Positions 11,628 to 25,985 of a stretch of DNA of 64,000 bases are shown one piece after another. Source of the stretch: Planctomycetota bacterium (GTDB taxonomy: Bacteria; Planctomycetota; J058); NCBI GenBank assembly GCA_023954375.1, contig JAMLIC010000006.1:146972-210971 (forward strand). The letters run 5' to 3'. The translations under genes were made by a program, and so were the position numbers. The notes beneath the pieces are model-generated. The model was given only the letters and a program-made list of their open reading frames with translations, made no database searches and was not told the origin of the DNA. The first letter of the stretch is position 1, and every line of letters starts with the position of its first letter.

Positions 11628-12161
11628 GTGGCGGGGACCGCAGGCGCAGGCGGGTGGACGTGCCCGGTGTGCGGCGCGGCAGGCGAGGCCGCTTGCCCCG
11701 GCTGCGCCCACGACCTCCCGGCGCGCGGCGCGGACCGGTTCTGGACGCCGGTGGGGGCGGCGACGGTGGGCCTCGTACCGGCGACCGCGCTCCTCGTCTG
11801 GCAGGGCGCCGCGCCCGGGTGGGCGGCCCTGGCGGCCTACGCGCTCGCGTGGGGCTGGTGCGCGCACCGGCCGGATGAGCTGGCAGCCGCGCCGGCGCGG
11901 CGCCTGCACGCTCGGCTGAAGCCGCTCCTCTTCCGTTGGTTCTGCTTCGTCCTGCTCATTGGCGTCGCCGTCCCGGTTGCCGGCTATCCGGTCCCGGGCG
12001 TGATCGTGTGGGTCGCCGCGGGGTTCGCCTTCCCGCTGCTCCAGGTGGCCGTGCAAGGCCTGGGCGACCACGATCCTCGAGGCGCGCACAGCCGCGCCGG
12101 GGAGGACGAGCCCGCGCAGGAGGACTCCGGAGGAGGAGGACGCCCGACGGAGCGCTCCTGA
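11628..12161 (+). CDS. small zinc-ribbon membrane protein (paralog family with 20209..20547, 20624..21109)
   Basis: GTG start; WTCPVCGAAGEAACPGCAHDL ribbon then TM helices (AALAAYALAWGWCA, LLFRWFCFVLLIGVAVPVAGYPVPGVIVWVAAGFAFPLL); ~85% GC3; upstream part of the 11238 track ORF overlaps the minus-strand membrane gene and is spurious. Confidence 0.45.
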   Translation: MAGTAGAGGWTCPVCGAAGEAACPGCAHDLPARGADRFWTPVGAATVGLVPATALLVWQGAAPGWAALAAYALAWGWCAHRPDELAAAPARRLHARLKPLLFRWFCFVLLIGVAVPVAGYPVPGVIVWVAAGFAFPLLQVAVQGLGDHDPRGAHSRAGEDEPAQEDSGGGGRPTERS

Positions 12162-12174
12162 CGCCGAGCGAGGC

Positions 12175-12765
12175 CTACTCCGCGCGGCCCCAGTCCAGCA
12201 GCTCGAGCTCGAGGTCGCCGTTGCGGATCGACTTCACCGCGCACTGGTTGAACGGCGGGACGTCCTGCTCCGCCACCCACAGCTCGGTCGAGTTGCCGGA
12301 CGCCGCGCGCTTGATGATGAGGACCTCGAGCTCCTTGCCGGCGACGGTCGTACCCTCCTTGTAGGGCGGCTCGACCAGGGCGTCGTAGGACTCCCAGGGC
12401 TTGTAGCGCTGGTCCTCGTCGGCGATGTCGATCGTGGCGTCGCCGAGCACGGCGCCGGTCTCGGCGTTCTTGCGCACGAACGTGACGCTGGTGTCGGTGA
12501 CCGCCGTGACCTCGAACTTGACCTGCTTCACCCGGCCGGCCGCCGTGCGGTAGGTGGCCCAGTCGCCGACCTTCGTGCGCACCCAGGGGGTCTTGGCGCT
12601 CGCCCGGTCGAACGGCTTCGGCGCGGGCTTCGGCGGCGGCGCGTCCTTCGGCGGCTCGGCGGGGCGCGAGGCCGGCGCCTGCTGCGGCTGGGGCGTGGCG
12701 GCGGGCTGGCTGTCGCAGCCGGCGAGGGCCGCGGCGAGCGTGAGGGCGACGACGAGGCGGGTCAT
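12175..12765 (-). CDS. lipoprotein, hypothetical
   Basis: Lipobox MTRLVVALTLAAALAGC, Pro/Ala-rich linker, globular C-terminus; protein-like composition. Confidence 0.75.
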   Translation of the reverse strand: MTRLVVALTLAAALAGCDSQPAATPQPQQAPASRPAEPPKDAPPPKPAPKPFDRASAKTPWVRTKVGDWATYRTAAGRVKQVKFEVTAVTDTSVTFVRKNAETGAVLGDATIDIADEDQRYKPWESYDALVEPPYKEGTTVAGKELEVLIIKRAASGNSTELWVAEQDVPPFNQCAVKSIRNGDLELELLDWGRAE

Positions 12766-17493: not shown

Positions 17494-17550
17494 CGCGCGG
17501 CGCCCCGTCGGCGTGGTATGCCGTCAGGGCACGCCGTCCCCGGAGCATCC

Positions 17551-19797
17551 ATGACCGCGAACCGCGCCGAGGCGATCGACCGCCAGTTCCAGGAGCACGT
17601 CCGCGCCCTCGACGCGCGCGCGCCCCGCGACCCCGCGCTGCCCGTCCGCGAGGGCTCGACGCTCACGGGCGCCGCGCTGCTCGAGCTGTTCGAGTCGCAG
17701 CTCATCTGCCGGCTGCTGGACCTCGCCGCGCGCGAGCTGCGCGCCCGCGACCAGGGCTACTACACGATCGGCAGCGCCGGCCACGAGGGCAACGTCGTCG
17801 TGGGGCGGCTGGCCCGCCACACCGACCCGGCGTTCCTCCACTACCGCAGCGGCGCCCTCATGGCCGAGCGCAGCCGCAAGGTCCCGGGGATCGACCCGGT
17901 CCGCGACGCGCTGCTCTCGCTCGTGGCGTCGTCCGACGACCCGATCTCCGGCGGCCGCCACAAGGTGTGGGGGAGCCGCGCCCTGTGGGTGCCGCCGCAG
18001 ACGAGCACGATCGCCTCGCACCTGCCCAAGGCCGTCGGCTGCGCGGTTGCGATCGACCGCGCCCGCCGCCTGAAGCTCGCCAGCCCGGTGCCGGGCGACG
18101 GCATCGCCGTGTGCAGCTTCGGCGACGCCTCGCTCAACCACAGCACCGCCCAGGGCGCGTTCAACGCGGCCGGGTGGATGGCCACGCAGAAGCTGCCCGT
18201 GCCGGTGCTCTTCGTGTGCGAGGACAACGGGATCGGGATCAGCGTCCCGACGCCGGACGGCTGGGTCGAGGCCTCCATGCGCCAGCGGCCCGGGATCGCC
18301 TACGTGCAGGCGGACGGGCTCGACCTCGTCGACGCCTGGGAGGGGGCCTCGCGCGCCGTCGAGACCTGCCGGCGCGAGCGGCGGCCGGTGTTCCTGCACC
18401 TCCGGACCGTGCGCCTCCTGGCCCACGCGGGCAGCGACATCGAGACCGAGTACCACACCCTCGACGAGATCGAGGCGGCCGAGCGTCGCGACCCGCTCCT
18501 GCGCAGCGCGGCGCTCGTCGTCGAGGCCGGCCTCCTCACGCCGGCGCAGGTCCTCGAGCGCTACGAGGCCCTGCGCGCCCGCGTGCGCGCCGGCGCGGCC
18601 GAGGTCGTCATGCGGCCCAAGCTGAAGAGCGCTCGCGAGGTGGTGGCCTCGCTCGCGCCCCTCCACCCGGCCGAGGTCGAGGCCGAGGCGGCCCGCCCGG
18701 CGCCCGCGCCGGCGGAGACCCGCCGCGCGCCCGTGGGCCGCCAGCGGCACCTCGCGGCGATGCTCAACCAGGGGCTGCACGAGGTCCTGCGCAAGTACCC
18801 CGAGGCGCTCCTCTTCGGCGAGGACGTCGCGAAGAAGGGCGGCGTGTACCACGTCACCGCCGGCCTCTGGAAGGAGTTCGGCGCCGGGCGCGTCTTCAAC
18901 ACGCTCCTCGACGAGCAGGCGATCCTCGGCCTGGCGCTCGGCGCCGCGCACCTCGGGCTCCTGCCGCTGCCGGAGATCCAGTACCTCGCCTACGTCCACA
19001 ACGCCGAGGACCAGCTGCGCGGCGAGGCCTGCTCCCTCCAGTTCTTCTCGAACGACCAGTTCCGCAACCCGACCGTCGTGCGGATCGCGTCGTTCGCCTA
19101 CCAGAAGGGCTTCGGGGGCCACTTCCACAACGACAACAGCCTGGCCGTCCTGCGCGACATCCCGGGCCTGATCGTGTGCGCGCCGGCGCGCGGCGACGAC
19201 GCCGTGCGCCTCCTGCGCACCTGCCTGGCGCTGGCGAAGGTCGACGGGCGGGTCGTCGCGTTCTGCGAGCCGATCGCCCTCTACATGACGAAGGACCTGT
19301 ACGAGGACGGCGACGGCCTGTGGCTGTCCGACTTCCCGGCCCCGGGCGAGGCGATCGGCCCGGGCGAGGGCCGCGTCTACCACGAGGACGCGCCGGACCT
19401 GACGATCGTCAGCTACGCCAACGGCCTGTGGCGCTCGCTCCGCGCCGCGCGGACGCTCGAGCGCGAGCACGGGGTCCGCGCGCGCGTCGTCGACCTGCGC
19501 TGGCTCCAGCCGCTGAACCTCGACCTGATCGAGCGCGAGGCCCGCGCCACCGGCCGCCTGCTCGTCGTCGACGAGTGCCGCCGCGCGGGCGGCCTGGGCG
19601 AGGCGATCGTGGCCGGCGTGACCCTGCGCGCGGGGGACGCCGTGCGAGCGGCGCTGGTCGCGGCCGAGGACACCTACATCCCGCTCGGCCCCGCCATGCA
19701 GACCGTGCTCCCGCAGGAGGAGCACGTCGTCGCCGCCGCGCGCGACCTCGTGCGCGAGGCCCCGCCGGCGGCCGTGGTCGCCGGCGTCAAGGCGTGA
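17551..19797 (+). CDS. fused 2-oxoacid dehydrogenase E1 component (alpha+beta subunits in one polypeptide, TPP-dependent)
   Basis: N-terminal half with TPP-binding alpha-subunit motifs (YRSGALMAERS..., GDASLNHSTAQGAFNAAG, LFVCEDNGIGISVPT); C-terminal half beta-subunit transketolase-like (FGEDVAKKGGVYHVTAGL..., DTYIPLGPA); start trimmed to MTANRA. Confidence 0.85.
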   Translation: MTANRAEAIDRQFQEHVRALDARAPRDPALPVREGSTLTGAALLELFESQLICRLLDLAARELRARDQGYYTIGSAGHEGNVVVGRLARHTDPAFLHYRSGALMAERSRKVPGIDPVRDALLSLVASSDDPISGGRHKVWGSRALWVPPQTSTIASHLPKAVGCAVAIDRARRLKLASPVPGDGIAVCSFGDASLNHSTAQGAFNAAGWMATQKLPVPVLFVCEDNGIGISVPTPDGWVEASMRQRPGIAYVQADGLDLVDAWEGASRAVETCRRERRPVFLHLRTVRLLAHAGSDIETEYHTLDEIEAAERRDPLLRSAALVVEAGLLTPAQVLERYEALRARVRAGAAEVVMRPKLKSAREVVASLAPLHPAEVEAEAARPAPAPAETRRAPVGRQRHLAAMLNQGLHEVLRKYPEALLFGEDVAKKGGVYHVTAGLWKEFGAGRVFNTLLDEQAILGLALGAAHLGLLPLPEIQYLAYVHNAEDQLRGEACSLQFFSNDQFRNPTVVRIASFAYQKGFGGHFHNDNSLAVLRDIPGLIVCAPARGDDAVRLLRTCLALAKVDGRVVAFCEPIALYMTKDLYEDGDGLWLSDFPAPGEAIGPGEGRVYHEDAPDLTIVSYANGLWRSLRAARTLEREHGVRARVVDLRWLQPLNLDLIEREARATGRLLVVDECRRAGGLGEAIVAGVTLRAGDAVRAALVAAEDTYIPLGPAMQTVLPQEEHVVAAARDLVREAPPAAVVAGVKA

Positions 19798-23340: not shown

Positions 23341-23351
23341 GCGTCAGGCGA
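23341..23351. repeat. right arm of 11-bp perfect inverted repeat bracketing the permuted tRNA (TCGCCTGACGC in minus orientation)
   Basis: plus-strand GCGTCAGGCGA at 23341-23351 is the exact reverse complement of 23471-23481. Confidence 0.9.
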
Positions 23352-23375
23352 CGAGGGGTGGAGAGACCTGTTTCG

Positions 23376-23455
23376 CGCTCTATCCGATTGAGCTACCCCG
23401 CCACGGAACGGCGGGGGCGGGGCTCGAACCCGCAACCTCGTCCTTCGTAGGGATG
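23376..23455 (-). tRNA. circularly permuted tRNA-Arg(ACG): 3' half (pos 27-73; 23455..23409) + 6-nt linker TTCCGT + 5' half (pos 1-26; 23402..23376)
   Basis: Minus strand reads CATCC-CTACGAA-GGACG-AGGTT-GCGGG-TTCGAGC-CCCGC-CCCCGCC-G | TTCCGT | GGCGGGG-TA-GCTC-AATCGGATA-GAGC-G. Reordered, this gives a canonical 73-nt tRNA: 7-bp acceptor GGCGGGG/CCCCGCC, U8, A14, G18G19, R26, U33, anticodon ACG, A37, G53-T54-T55-C56-R57-A58, C61. One A:C mismatch in the anticodon stem; no encoded CCA. Confidence 0.5.
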
Positions 23456-23470
23456 GAGTCCCTCCTGCAT

Positions 23471-23481
23471 TCGCCTGACGC
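23471..23481. repeat. left arm of 11-bp inverted repeat bracketing the permuted tRNA
   Basis: plus-strand TCGCCTGACGC at 23471-23481; in the minus-strand transcript this leader GCGUCAGGCGA can pair with the trailer UCGCCUGACGC (plus a further GAGGG/CCCUC segment), juxtaposing tRNA positions 26 and 27. Confidence 0.9.
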
Positions 23482-23510: not shown

Positions 23511-24770
23511 TCATCCGCCGGCCGCGGCCAGCGCGACCGCCAGCGCCGCCTCGCGCGTCAGGGCGCGCCCCTCGAGCTGCGCCTCCTCGGCGGCCGCGAG
23601 CGCCGGGCCGAAGTGCTTGCCCGGCTTCAGGCCGGCCGCCTGCAGGTCGGCGCCGCGCACGAGGGGCGGCGCGTCGAGGCGGGCCGCGGTCGGGTCGGCG
23701 GCGAAGGCCCGCGCGCGGAGGACGAGGTAGCGGTGCGGCTCGAGGTCGCCGTCGTCGGCCAGGAGCACGGCCCGCAGCAGGTCGGCGAACGGCCACCGGC
23801 TCACCTCGGCCCGGCGCAGGAAGCGCTTCTGCTCGGCGACGCAGAGGTCCCAAAGGCGGCGCGCGACGTCGAGCGCCTCGAGCGCGGCGCGCACCCGCTC
23901 GCGCTGCGCGTTGCTGGCGCGGAGCCGCGTGAGGGCCGCCTCCGCCGTGGCCGGCCCGGCGAGGTGGAGCGCCGCCGCCCAGGCCGCGTCGACCGGCGCG
24001 TCGCCGGGCAAGGCGGCGAGCGCCCGGAGGGCCCGCGGCAGGTCGACCCGCGCCTCGGGCAGGACGTGCGCGAGCACGCCGACCTCCTCGCAGAGGGCCA
24101 GCCCGCGCGCCCGCGTCGGCGGCGCGAGCACCTTCTGCAGCTCGGTGTGGACGCGCTCGGGCGAGACGCACGCGGGCACCTCGGGCGCGTGCGCCCGGCC
24201 GGCGGCCACCGTGGCCGGGTCGAGGCGGAAGCCCAGCGCCGCGGCGAAGCGCGGCGCGCGGAGGATCCGCAGGCGGTCCTCCAGGAAGCGCGCGTCGGCG
24301 TCGCCGATCGCCCGCACCACCCCGCGGACCAGGTCCTCGCGGCCGCCCACGAAGTCGAGGACCTCGTCGCCGATCGGGTCGTAGAACAGCCCGTTGATCG
24401 TGAAGTCGCGGCGCCGCGCGTCCTCCTCGGGCCCCGTGAAGCGCACCGCCGTCGGCCGCCGACCGTCCTCGTACTCCGCATCGACGCGGAACGTGGCGAC
24501 CTCGACCTCGACGGAGACCCCCTCGCGCGCCCGCTCGCGCACGCGGACGACGCCGAACTGCACCCCGACCGGGATCGAGCGGCGGAAGGCCCCCTGGACC
24601 TCCTCGGGCGTGGCGCTCGTGGCCACGTCGATGTCGCTCGCCTCGCGCCCGAGCAGGCGGTCGCGCACCGAGCCGCCCGCCCACAGCGCCTGGTGGCCGC
24701 GCTCGCGCAGCCGCCGGACCACCTGCAGGGCGGCCGCGCGGACGTCGGCAGGGTCTACGCGGGACGCCAC
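23511..24770 (-). CDS. cca: CCA tRNA nucleotidyltransferase (poly(A) polymerase head-domain family)
   Basis: WAGGSVRDRLLGREASDIDVATSATPEEV (GGxVRD...DxD), RDFTINGLFYDP, C-terminal probable HD-like region. Confidence 0.8.
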   Translation of the reverse strand: MASRVDPADVRAAALQVVRRLRERGHQALWAGGSVRDRLLGREASDIDVATSATPEEVQGAFRRSIPVGVQFGVVRVRERAREGVSVEVEVATFRVDAEYEDGRRPTAVRFTGPEEDARRRDFTINGLFYDPIGDEVLDFVGGREDLVRGVVRAIGDADARFLEDRLRILRAPRFAAALGFRLDPATVAAGRAHAPEVPACVSPERVHTELQKVLAPPTRARGLALCEEVGVLAHVLPEARVDLPRALRALAALPGDAPVDAAWAAALHLAGPATAEAALTRLRASNAQRERVRAALEALDVARRLWDLCVAEQKRFLRRAEVSRWPFADLLRAVLLADDGDLEPHRYLVLRARAFAADPTAARLDAPPLVRGADLQAAGLKPGKHFGPALAAAEEAQLEGRALTREAALAVALAAAGG

Positions 24771-24881: not shown

Positions 24882-25985
24882 TCAGCGGGGGGTGACGCGC
24901 ACGCCGTCGCGGTCGATCCGGACCTCGAGGCGGGGCGACGCGGTCACGAGCCCCAGCTCCTCGGCGGTCGGCACCTCGCCCGGGCGCGCCTGCTGCCAGC
25001 GGTGGAAGCGCTCCTCGAGCGCGCGCTGGAGGCGCCGCGCCTCGACGCCCGGCGCGATCACCCGGCCCTCCTCCAGGCGATAGCCCACACCGAGCGGGTC
25101 CTCGACCCCGTGCTCGCGCAGGACCTCCAGCGCGTCGGGGAGCCGGCCGCCGCCGCGCTCGTGATGGCGCAGGGCGGCGTCGATGAACCGCCACAGCGCG
25201 TCCAGGTCGCCCGGCGGGGCGCCGGCCTGCTGGGCGACGTCGTCTGCGACCTGCTGCAGCGCCTGCGCGATGAGCGCCGCGCGCGTCTCGGTCAGGCGCC
25301 GCTCCGCCTGCGCGCGCATGGCCGGCTCGCCGTGGCCGGCCGCGTCGAGCCAGCGCTGCTCGTCGTAGCGCAGGGCCTCCAGGGGCGAGAGCCCGCGCGT
25401 GGCGAGGCGGCGGGCGAAGGCCTCGAGCTCGGGGGGCGCGCCGGGCAGCCCCACCGCGCGCTGCAGGAGCTCGCCCCCGCGGCGCACGTGCTCGACCCGC
25501 TCGTCCTCGGGCTTCCCGAGCCCGTCGAGGAGCTCGATCGAGGCCAGCTCCACGAAGAGCAGCCAGCGCCCCGGGTGGCCCACGGGGACGCCGCGCGCGG
25601 GGTCGATGCCCCGCTCCAGAAAAGCGCGCGCCAGGTCGGCGCGGTCGGCCACCGAGTAGAAGTAGACCGAGGCCCGCCGGTACGCCCCGGCGTCCATGGG
25701 GTCGAGCGCGAGGATCGCGTCGTACAGCCGCGAGATGTGCTCGTGGCGCAGGCGGTCCATCCCCTCGAGCCAGCGCATGAGGAAGTTGGTCGCGCGGATC
25801 TCCAGCAGGTTCGCCGCCGTCTGCGGGTGGCCGAACGTCAGGACGCGGAGGATGGCGCGCGGCGGCAGCACCTCGAGCACGTCCGGGGGCGGCGTGCGCC
25901 GCGCGTCGAGGCGGCCCTGCACGGGGAAGAGCAGGGCGGCGCCGGCGAGCGCGACGAGGGCCGGGGCGCGCCGGGCGAGGGCCAC
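24882..25985 (-). CDS. hypothetical secreted protein
   Basis: Signal peptide MALARRAPALVALAGAALLFPVQG; protein-like composition, high GC3. Confidence 0.6.
   Translation of the reverse strand: MALARRAPALVALAGAALLFPVQGRLDARRTPPPDVLEVLPPRAILRVLTFGHPQTAANLLEIRATNFLMRWLEGMDRLRHEHISRLYDAILALDPMDAGAYRRASVYFYSVADRADLARAFLERGIDPARGVPVGHPGRWLLFVELASIELLDGLGKPEDERVEHVRRGGELLQRAVGLPGAPPELEAFARRLATRGLSPLEALRYDEQRWLDAAGHGEPAMRAQAERRLTETRAALIAQALQQVADDVAQQAGAPPGDLDALWRFIDAALRHHERGGGRLPDALEVLREHGVEDPLGVGYRLEEGRVIAPGVEARRLQRALEERFHRWQQARPGEVPTAEELGLVTASPRLEVRIDRDGVRVTPR

Follow-up and report, generated by a model that had tools for sequence, protein, structure and literature searches.

What kind of gene carries the two halves of a transfer RNA (tRNA) in reversed order? 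The question is posed by positions 23341-23481, on the minus strand, of a 64,000-nucleotide stretch with a GC content of 77.6% (contig JAMLIC010000006.1 of assembly GCA_023954375.1; hereafter, the window) from a Planctomycetota metagenome-assembled genome. A first-pass annotation read the element as a circularly permuted tRNA-Arg(ACG) gene, bracketed by an inverted repeat, and knew of no permuted tRNA described in a bacterium. We find that it is very probably the gene for a YrlA-family bacterial Y RNA. YrlA RNAs are tRNA-shaped partners of the Ro60 protein, and their likeness to circularly permuted tRNAs has already been published, so that the claim of novelty falls. The window RNA adds to this described family and is atypical only in its genomic context.

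Probable Y RNAs encoded close to Ro60 were reported from over 250 species of bacteria and phages by Chen et al. 2014 (PMC4201824). In YrlA, the two ends of the molecule pair into a stem that bears the sequence GNCGAAN0-1G, thought to contact Ro60/Rsr, and the middle mimics tRNA by means of a T arm, a loop-closed acceptor-like stem and a D arm (Chen et al. 2014, PMC4201824). The window RNA has these elements in the YrlA order of stem, hairpin, T arm, closed acceptor stem-loop, D arm and stem. Read on the minus strand from 23481 to 23341, its sequence is

GCGUCAGGCGA-AUGCA-GGAGGGAC-UCCA-UCC-CUACGAA-GGA-CG-AGGUU-GCGGG-UUCGAGC-CCCGC, followed by
CCCCGCC-GUUCCGU-GGCGGGG-UA-GCUC-AAUCGGAUA-GAGC-G-CG-AAACAG-GUCUCUCC-ACCCCUCG-UCGCCUGACGC,

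and its parts are as follows.

23341..23481, minus strand: whole RNA gene, very probably a YrlA-type Y RNA, ~141 nt long, counting from one outer end of the terminal helix to the other.
23471..23481, minus strand: 5′ strand of helix P1, GCGUCAGGCGA (the leader of the first-pass annotation), pairing with 23341-23351.
23341..23351, minus strand: 3′ strand of P1, UCGCCUGACGC (the trailer), pairing with 23471-23481.
23468..23475, minus strand: Ro60/Rsr motif GNCGAAN0-1G, here GGCGAAUG, as read from the sequence; the protein contact is that proposed by Chen et al. 2014 (PMC4201824).
23458..23465, minus strand: 5′ strand of helix P2, GGAGGGAC, pairing with 23360-23367.
23360..23367, minus strand: 3′ strand of P2, GUCUCUCC, pairing with 23458-23465.
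23455..23458, minus strand: CUCC at the YUAY (CUAC) site, placed by alignment A1 (below).
23441..23453, minus strand: hairpin UCC-CUACGAA-GGA, formerly called the anticodon arm and corresponding to the YrlA 'V' stem-loop; loop 23444-23450, with the A of UACG at 23448.
23439..23440, minus strand: CG, 3′ strand of the 2-bp helix that closes the junction (tRNA positions 42-43), pairing with 23374-23375 and matching an Rfam consensus helix.
23374..23375, minus strand: CG after the D stem and G26, 5′ strand of the junction helix (tRNA positions 27-28), covarying with 23439-23440.
23417..23433, minus strand: T arm GCGGG-UUCGAGC-CCCGC, from sequence and covariation.
23396..23416, minus strand: acceptor-like stem-loop of 7 bp, CCCCGCC/GGCGGGG, with loop GUUCCGU (23403-23409), from sequence and covariation.
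23377..23393, minus strand: D arm GCUC-AAUCGGAUA-GAGC, following U8-A9 (23395-23394), from sequence; its stem is nearly invariant in the family.

Much of the first-pass description stands. The hairpin, T arm, acceptor strands, U8, D arm and G26 are all present, an agreement far beyond chance, and the circularly permuted order (3′ half, linker, 5′ half), the closed acceptor stem and the paired ends are all in the sequence. The inverted repeat does comprise 11 bp (GCGUCAGGCGA, 23481-23471, with UCGCCUGACGC, 23351-23341), and the 7-bp acceptor stem (CCCCGCC-GUUCCGU-GGCGGGG, 23416-23396) is perfect. A permuted pattern of T loop, short gap and D arm matched the window once and matched none of 100 shuffles. 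The nucleotides that make tertiary contacts in tRNA are present (G18-G19, U54-U55-C56, A58, U8-A14, and A15 with U48); A15 (23388) can form a Levitt pair with U48 (23434), as in Chen et al. 2014 (PMC4201824). The purpose that had been assigned to the inverted repeat, a helix for joining the ends, does not hold: the repeat is the predicted Ro60-binding stem with its conserved motif, GGCGAAUG at 23475-23468, which lies inside the helix formed by the RNA ends. This end stem is bipartite, with P1 (11 bp) and P2 (8 bp) separated by an internal loop.

In a permissive Rfam scan, the locus matched YrlA (RF02553) at 23342-23477 on the minus strand with 66.8 bits (E 8.4e-15), covering positions 1-114 of the 114 in the model, and YrlA was the only Rfam hit in the whole 64 kb at E<=0.01. 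The tRNA model RF00005 had no match at the locus at E<=0.01. Neither the tmRNA search of ARAGORN nor Rfam found a transfer-messenger RNA (tmRNA) in the window. At Rfam gathering thresholds nothing was reported at the locus, and ARAGORN was likewise silent there. Ro60-linked YrlAs with the same hairpin score 46.5-75.4 bits, so 66.8 bits is an ordinary value for the family.

The fold was examined in alignment A1, which holds 16 sequences and in which pairs were counted for three structural models. Under the YrlA-type model, 88.2% of cells are paired, compared with 36-48% in slid controls; 22 pairs have changes on both sides, and none of 500 shuffles reached the observed covariation score. The inner five pairs of P1 are invariant or nearly so and its outer pairs show compensatory changes; GCGAAUGC is invariant in all 16 sequences, the window sequence not having been selected for the motif. 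In P2, pairing reaches 99.2% and five of eight pairs have changed on both sides. Compensatory changes also occur in two of the three pairs of the extra hairpin stem, in three of the five of the T stem (98.8% paired) and in five of the seven of the acceptor-like stem, the sequence of which varies freely among relatives while pairing is kept. The D stem, 95.3% paired, is nearly invariant. In the 2-bp junction helix, column 43 pairs with column 116 as CG in 10 sequences and GC in 4, and column 44 with column 115 as GC in 15 and GU in 1; the swap of CG for GC follows one subgroup and may represent a single evolutionary event.

These counts redraw the region that had been read as an anticodon stem. 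A stem of five pairs had been proposed, but 28:42 is unpaired in 16 of 16 family members and 27:43 is an invariant C-G; the base at 42 covaries instead with the second nucleotide past G26. A second leader/trailer helix, GAGGG with CCCUC, gives way to the pairing of GGAGGGAC with GUCUCUCC, which is what the covariation supports. As judged from the alignment, the extra hairpin is a stem of 3 bp with an exposed 7-nt loop, CUACGAA, that branches beside P2, and the predicted Ro-binding stem branches off the tRNA-like core at 28/29, within what would be the anticodon stem, rather than at 26/27. The hairpin register of the minimum-free-energy structure (CCUACG/CGAGG) was rejected; it has no compensatory changes, and two of its pairs are broken in 7-11 sequences. 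A subgroup of Ro-linked YrlAs (our loci L134, L139, L143, L155 and L157) has an extra hairpin of a different kind, at A1 columns ~117-136, which follows the D arm and precedes the 3′ strand of P2; its loop reads, for example, GCAA, GCGA or UAAU. This hairpin occupies the position of the anticodon arm in tRNA order and has no counterpart in the window RNA.

Could the transcript be cut and rejoined into a decoding tRNA of 73-74 nt, as for a genuine circularly permuted tRNA-Arg(ACG)? We consider this very improbable. ARAGORN, which calls nothing in the native order, does call tRNA-Arg(acg) from the un-permuted sequence; the loop CUACGAA equals the anticodon loop of tRNA-Arg(ACG); and the identity nucleotides by which arginyl-tRNA synthetase (ArgRS) knows its substrate, A20, C35 and G36, are present, A20 in the D loop and the other two in the hairpin loop. 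The call from joined halves bears out one part of the description as a textbook 73-nt tRNA-Arg. The joined molecule is, however, 74 nt long and has an A.C mismatch at 28:42, and so falls slightly short of that description. Moreover, the un-permutation test does not discriminate: ARAGORN calls a tRNA from nearly every YrlA-like RNA so treated, for example Lys(ttt) from a Comamonas YrlA, and gives other anticodons when the window RNA is un-permuted at other cut points. Positions 42-43, instead of completing an anticodon stem, pair with the D-side strand. At the junction, P2, the hairpin and the 2-bp helix meet in a multihelix branch bordered by the single strands UCCA and AAACAG, and on inspection no bulge-helix-bulge (3-4-3) splice motif was found there. 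The flanking helix carries the Ro60 motif. Finally, close relatives that were found through their Ro protein have the loop CUACAAA. Nothing supports maturation into a 73-nt decoding tRNA-Arg.

It is extremely improbable that the element was created by misassembly, or that the end of one tRNA gene and the start of its tandem neighbor were mistaken for a single element. The T-loop/D-arm pattern does pick up tandem tRNAs when their spacers are short. Our scan of a genome collection with the permuted pattern of T loop, gap and D arm returned at least 120 loci, and about 100 of the 120 listed are tandem tRNA genes; Chen et al. 2014 (PMC4201824) warn of such false positives. In the window RNA, however, the acceptor strands on either side of the 7-nt loop are perfect complements, and the element has neither a D arm before it nor a T arm after it. 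A second, independent assembly, GCA_019636275.1 (L121), has the RNA with identical architecture at the same syntenic position. The first-pass annotation had itself allowed for an assembly artefact, which this assembly contradicts, and for a recombination remnant, which is likewise unsupported.

Where do the relatives of this RNA lie? About 17 of the listed genome-scan matches have a closed acceptor hairpin, and none of those listed is a close relative. The RNA adjoins TROVE/Ro60 genes at L004, L008, L040, L053, L059, L065, L074, L095, L116 and L117, and RtcB genes at L036 and L076. A metagenome scan that required a CUACGAA loop along with the Ro motif and a T loop yielded 33 loci, about half of which were set aside as true tRNA-Arg(ACG) genes with GCGAAT in front of them; a pattern built around the D arm was given up, having matched a real tRNA-Arg followed by another tRNA (L082). 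Fifteen of the 33 are YrlA-type RNAs, from source genomes of 42-70% GC, and 14 of these 15 have Ro60/TROVE and/or RtcB on the same strand within ~1.5 kb. L162 to L164 are canonical rtcR-rsr-YrlA-rtc operons, with rtcA-rtcB in L162. In the cultured bacterium Chthoniobacter flavus Ellin428 (L164), the YrlA hairpin is identical to that of the window RNA, as it is in L147; the loop is CUACAAA in L162 and L163, two loci that were found through the Ro protein and are unbiased for the loop.

Several further features of these loci were seen. Ro60 operons often hold 2-4 tandem YrlA copies with differing extra hairpins, some copies having no hairpin (L139 4934-5297; L129 2495-3159; L147 4200-4481; L160 1536-1802; L164 3340-3620). 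On two unrelated contigs (L131 230-3340 and L004 630-2760), ~13-15 tRNA genes stand directly upstream of YrlA and Ro60. Between the YrlA copies and rtcB of L160, positions 1139-1226 on the minus strand match the tmRNA model weakly (25.8 bits; cut-off 47), and this element could be a further tRNA-like fragment or an RNA of the YrlB type.

The genomic setting of the window RNA differs from that of these operons. Its upstream neighbor is a gene of the same strand.

23511..24770, minus strand: CCA tRNA nucleotidyltransferase gene (cca), 419 aa, the upstream neighbor, whose stop codon lies 29 nt before the RNA.

The product is a class II enzyme of the CCA-adding/PcnB type with Pfam PolyA_pol head, RNA-binding and tRNA_NucTran2_2 domains. 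NCBIfam CCA/PcnB models match it below their equivalog cut-offs, and it is 100% identical to a protein from a Planctomycetes metagenome-assembled genome that NCBI names CCA tRNA nucleotidyltransferase. Co-transcription of the RNA with cca is possible. Downstream, a convergent gene for a yegS-like lipid kinase ends 5 nt past the RNA and is followed by cinA. Between ABC-2 transporter genes and cca, 24882-25985 on the minus strand encodes a protein of 367 aa that is matched by neither Pfam nor NCBIfam and is conserved at the same place in L121 (367 aa), L122 (369 aa) and L123 (361 aa). It was rejected as a divergent Ro, having no TROVE similarity and being part of a conserved ABC-transporter gene cluster. 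Farther away, ARAGORN called a tRNA-Ser(cga) at 17556-17649 on the minus strand, where the Rfam tRNA model is silent both at its gathering score and at E<=0.01. The call lies in an open reading frame (ORF) on the plus strand, 17494-19797, that encodes an E1 dehydrogenase/transketolase-like protein, and is probably a false positive in coding DNA of 78% GC.

In the sister assembly L121, gene order and RNA are the same and the CCA enzyme is 88% identical. The two RNAs agree at 134 of 139 positions (~96%), and all five differences are unpaired, lying in the T loop, the acceptor loop, the D loop and one junction strand. Identity collapses just outside P1, and the flanking intergenic DNA is heavily diverged. 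At the level of sequence, this comparison shows purifying selection on the RNA between the two genomes, in a test that rests on two genomes and has limited power. At the loci of cca orthologs with 66-79% identity (L122-L128), no such RNA was found downstream, where there are gaps of 36-105 nt or unrelated repeats. Its absence beside cca in these genomes indicates that the linkage with cca is recent and shallow. In L124 (2150-2593), a series of GC-rich direct repeats of ~60 nt lies downstream of the 79%-identical cca ortholog. L122 contains at 12109-12250 a long, near-perfect, GC-rich palindromic hairpin, which the mir-3622 model matches at ~47 bits on both strands, below threshold; it is certainly not a microRNA and was rejected as such.

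A number of observations count against assignment of the window RNA to YrlA. No TROVE/Ro60 or RtcB gene was found in the window, which extends from -23 kb to +40 kb of the RNA, or in L121. The search used Pfam on called ORFs and six-frame tblastn, with six Ro proteins and one RtcB, of the window and L121-L123; the best tblastn E value in these sequences was 0.2, and against comparator loci these queries reached 1e-11 to 1e-115. Nearly all best matches of Chen et al. 2014 (PMC4201824) lie <=4 kb from Ro60, and their high-confidence set is defined by a Ro60 gene within about 4 kb on the same strand, which the window lacks. A search with the Ro60 protein for a Planctomycetota Ro gave named matches in Verrucomicrobia and Acidobacteria only. 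The score of 66.8 bits is 2.2 bits below the curated gathering score of RF02553, 69, so automatic Rfam annotation misses the window RNA. The YUAY motif (Chen et al. 2014, PMC4201824; Wang 2018), the UA of which forms a kink in the crystal structure of Salmonella YrlA, reads CUCC in the window and in L121, compared with CUAC or UUAC in the other 14 sequences of A1. The departure is a single base, A to C at the third position, with the U retained, and YUAY is a conserved accessory feature of YrlA, not a defining one. Lastly, no promoter or terminator consensus was found at the RNA by a scan that is uninformative for this phylum.

The missing partner genes bear on whether the locus is still alive. 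It could be a stranded relic, a YrlA gene that was split from its rsr operon or has outlived it and now stands, nonfunctional, between cca and the yegS-like gene. The lack of Ro60 and RtcB genes in the 64 kb, the cca loci without the RNA in L122-L128, by which its placement is recent, and the UC in place of an otherwise conserved UA are all in keeping with decay. A relic is very unlikely, however, given that the five differences from the sister RNA fall exclusively on unpaired positions while the surrounding intergenic DNA has diverged heavily and the neighboring enzyme is 88% identical, and that all helices and tRNA tertiary-contact nucleotides are intact.

The position behind cca suggests another origin for the tRNA likeness, namely a cis-acting element of the cca mRNA that serves 3′ processing, in the manner of mascRNA, or feedback, independently of Ro60. 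The CCA-adding enzyme or RNase P could bind such an element or process it, and so set the 3′ end or the stability of the mRNA. The RNA is on the cca strand, 29 nt after the stop codon with no terminator found between, and there is no space for a separate promoter outside the coding region; the CCA-adding enzyme and RNase P act on Mycobacterium smegmatis YrlA; and no Ro60 gene is nearby. Yet the linkage with cca is confined to two close genomes, with orthologs at 66-79% identity lacking the RNA, the Ro60 motif and full end stem are kept although a 3′-end processing signal does not need them, and RNAs of the same type occur in rsr-rtcB operons elsewhere. We judge a cis-acting element decidedly unlikely.

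The window RNA would not be alone in lying apart from Ro60. A Streptomyces locus (L051, 2181-2305, plus strand) contains a YrlA-like RNA of 47.3 bits with no Ro60 within the 8-kb locus, flanked by genes for a Glu/Leu/Phe/Val dehydrogenase (glutamate dehydrogenase) and a metallo-β-lactamase (MBL)-fold hydrolase. It is apparently a second unlinked YrlA. Because of such unlinked cases, the window RNA and L051, searches limited to the neighborhood of Ro60 undercount the family.

How might such an RNA work? Judging by its position, it is probably made as part of the cca transcript, or from a start inside the cca gene, and released by processing, just as other YrlAs are released from the transcripts of rsr operons. 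By analogy with the family, the end stem would bind the ring protein Ro60/Rsr, which must then be encoded elsewhere in the genome, and the tRNA-like domain would recruit a tRNA-binding effector, PNPase being the characterized case. Enzymes that act on tRNA would also act on this domain, as Salmonella YrlA is modified by DusA and TruB. M. smegmatis YrlA, a member of the family with a 7-bp stem, is reported to be cut by RNase P and given CCA. With a 7-bp acceptor stem and a U at -1, cleavage of the window RNA is probable, at the following site.

Between 23403 (U-1) and 23402 (G+1), minus strand: predicted RNase P site, by analogy with M. smegmatis YrlA.

RNase P would thus open the acceptor loop before G 23402; the 3′ tail would be trimmed and CCA added after G 23409, again as in M. 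smegmatis. The product would be a two-piece, base-paired, tRNA-like RNA.

What, then, of the hairpin that was taken for an anticodon arm? It might be a working mimic of that arm and not a passive 'variable' stem-loop, an idea that we rate as unlikely. The hairpin and the 2-bp junction helix would in that case complete an anticodon-like stem of 5 bp. TadA requires YUACGAA in a stem-loop, equal to the anticodon loop of tRNA-Arg2 (PMC12255301). The window loop, CUACGAA, fits that motif exactly and goes together with the A20, C35 and G36 noted above. A mimic could be edited by TadA, recognized by ArgRS, or hit by anticodon nucleases as a decoy or sensor, and in the lineage of the window it might act without Ro60. 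One YrlA copy in L139 has the loop CUACGAA and another CUUUUAA, which also occurs in L076. CUUUUAA is the anticodon loop of tRNA-Lys(UUU), and such sibling loops would fit the anticodon-mimic idea. Strict conservation of the loop is contradicted by CUACAAA in L162 and L163, as against CUACGAA in C. flavus Ellin428. In the literature that we searched, no paper links YrlA to TadA or ArgRS.

Among known systems, the YrlAs of Salmonella Typhimurium (6CU1) and M. smegmatis have the same order of elements as the window RNA, the hairpin being optional, and share with it the conserved T and D stem sequences and the tertiary-contact nucleotides; M. smegmatis YrlA also has the 7-bp acceptor stem. Reported YrlAs lie within 4 kb of Ro60, whereas the window RNA has no rsr or rtcB within 23-40 kb. 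It further departs from them in being single copy, as against the 2-4 tandem YrlAs of many operons, in having CUCC for YUAY, in standing directly after cca, in its Planctomycetota host and in scoring 2.2 bits under the cut-off. Also close are the YrlAs of C. flavus Ellin428 (L164), L146, L147, L160 and others. Like the window RNA, they carry a UCN-CUACGAA-N'GA hairpin between YUAY and the T arm and a 7-bp acceptor stem, and their overall identity to it is 63-73%. They are flanked by Ro60 and RtcB genes, often with sibling copies that have other loops; the window RNA, in contrast, is solitary and unlinked.

Deinococcus radiodurans Yrn1 resembles the window RNA in having a Ro60-binding stem and a tRNA-like module with a T arm, and Chen et al. 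2014 (PMC4201824) noted in it a possible 'anticodon arm' whose stem has 5 bp. Yrn1 differs in how its T and D arms are oriented with respect to the ends of the RNA, in the lack of a full D arm and in retaining both strands of the Ro-binding helix, and the window RNA has the YrlA layout. The permuted tRNA genes of Cyanidioschyzon merolae, other algae and one archaeon, which Wang 2018 discusses as a parallel to YrlA, place the 3′ half before the 5′ half with a short linker, as in the window. Their precursors undergo bulge-helix-bulge splicing, are circularized and are opened into decoding tRNAs, a pathway unknown in bacteria, whereas in the window RNA the paired ends are a conserved, predicted Ro60-binding stem and no splice motif is evident. 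Two-piece tmRNA, of alpha-proteobacteria and cyanobacteria, is bacterial and tRNA-like, and its permuted order gives two base-paired pieces with CCA on the upstream one; it differs in its tag-peptide reading frame, pseudoknots and alanine identity, and the window RNA is too small for a tag.

The main value of these results is corrective, as a striking bacterial 'permuted tRNA' is explained by a described RNA family. They also indicate that YrlA-type RNAs occur in Planctomycetota and that YrlAs can be unlinked from rsr and rtcB. The extra hairpin of a widespread YrlA subgroup bears the exact anticodon loop of tRNA-Arg(ACG), with covariation of its stem in support. If the genome is truly without Ro60, the window RNA would be a Y-RNA-like tRNA mimic that works without its defining partner, which, if true, would bear on the role of the tRNA-like domain of YrlA.

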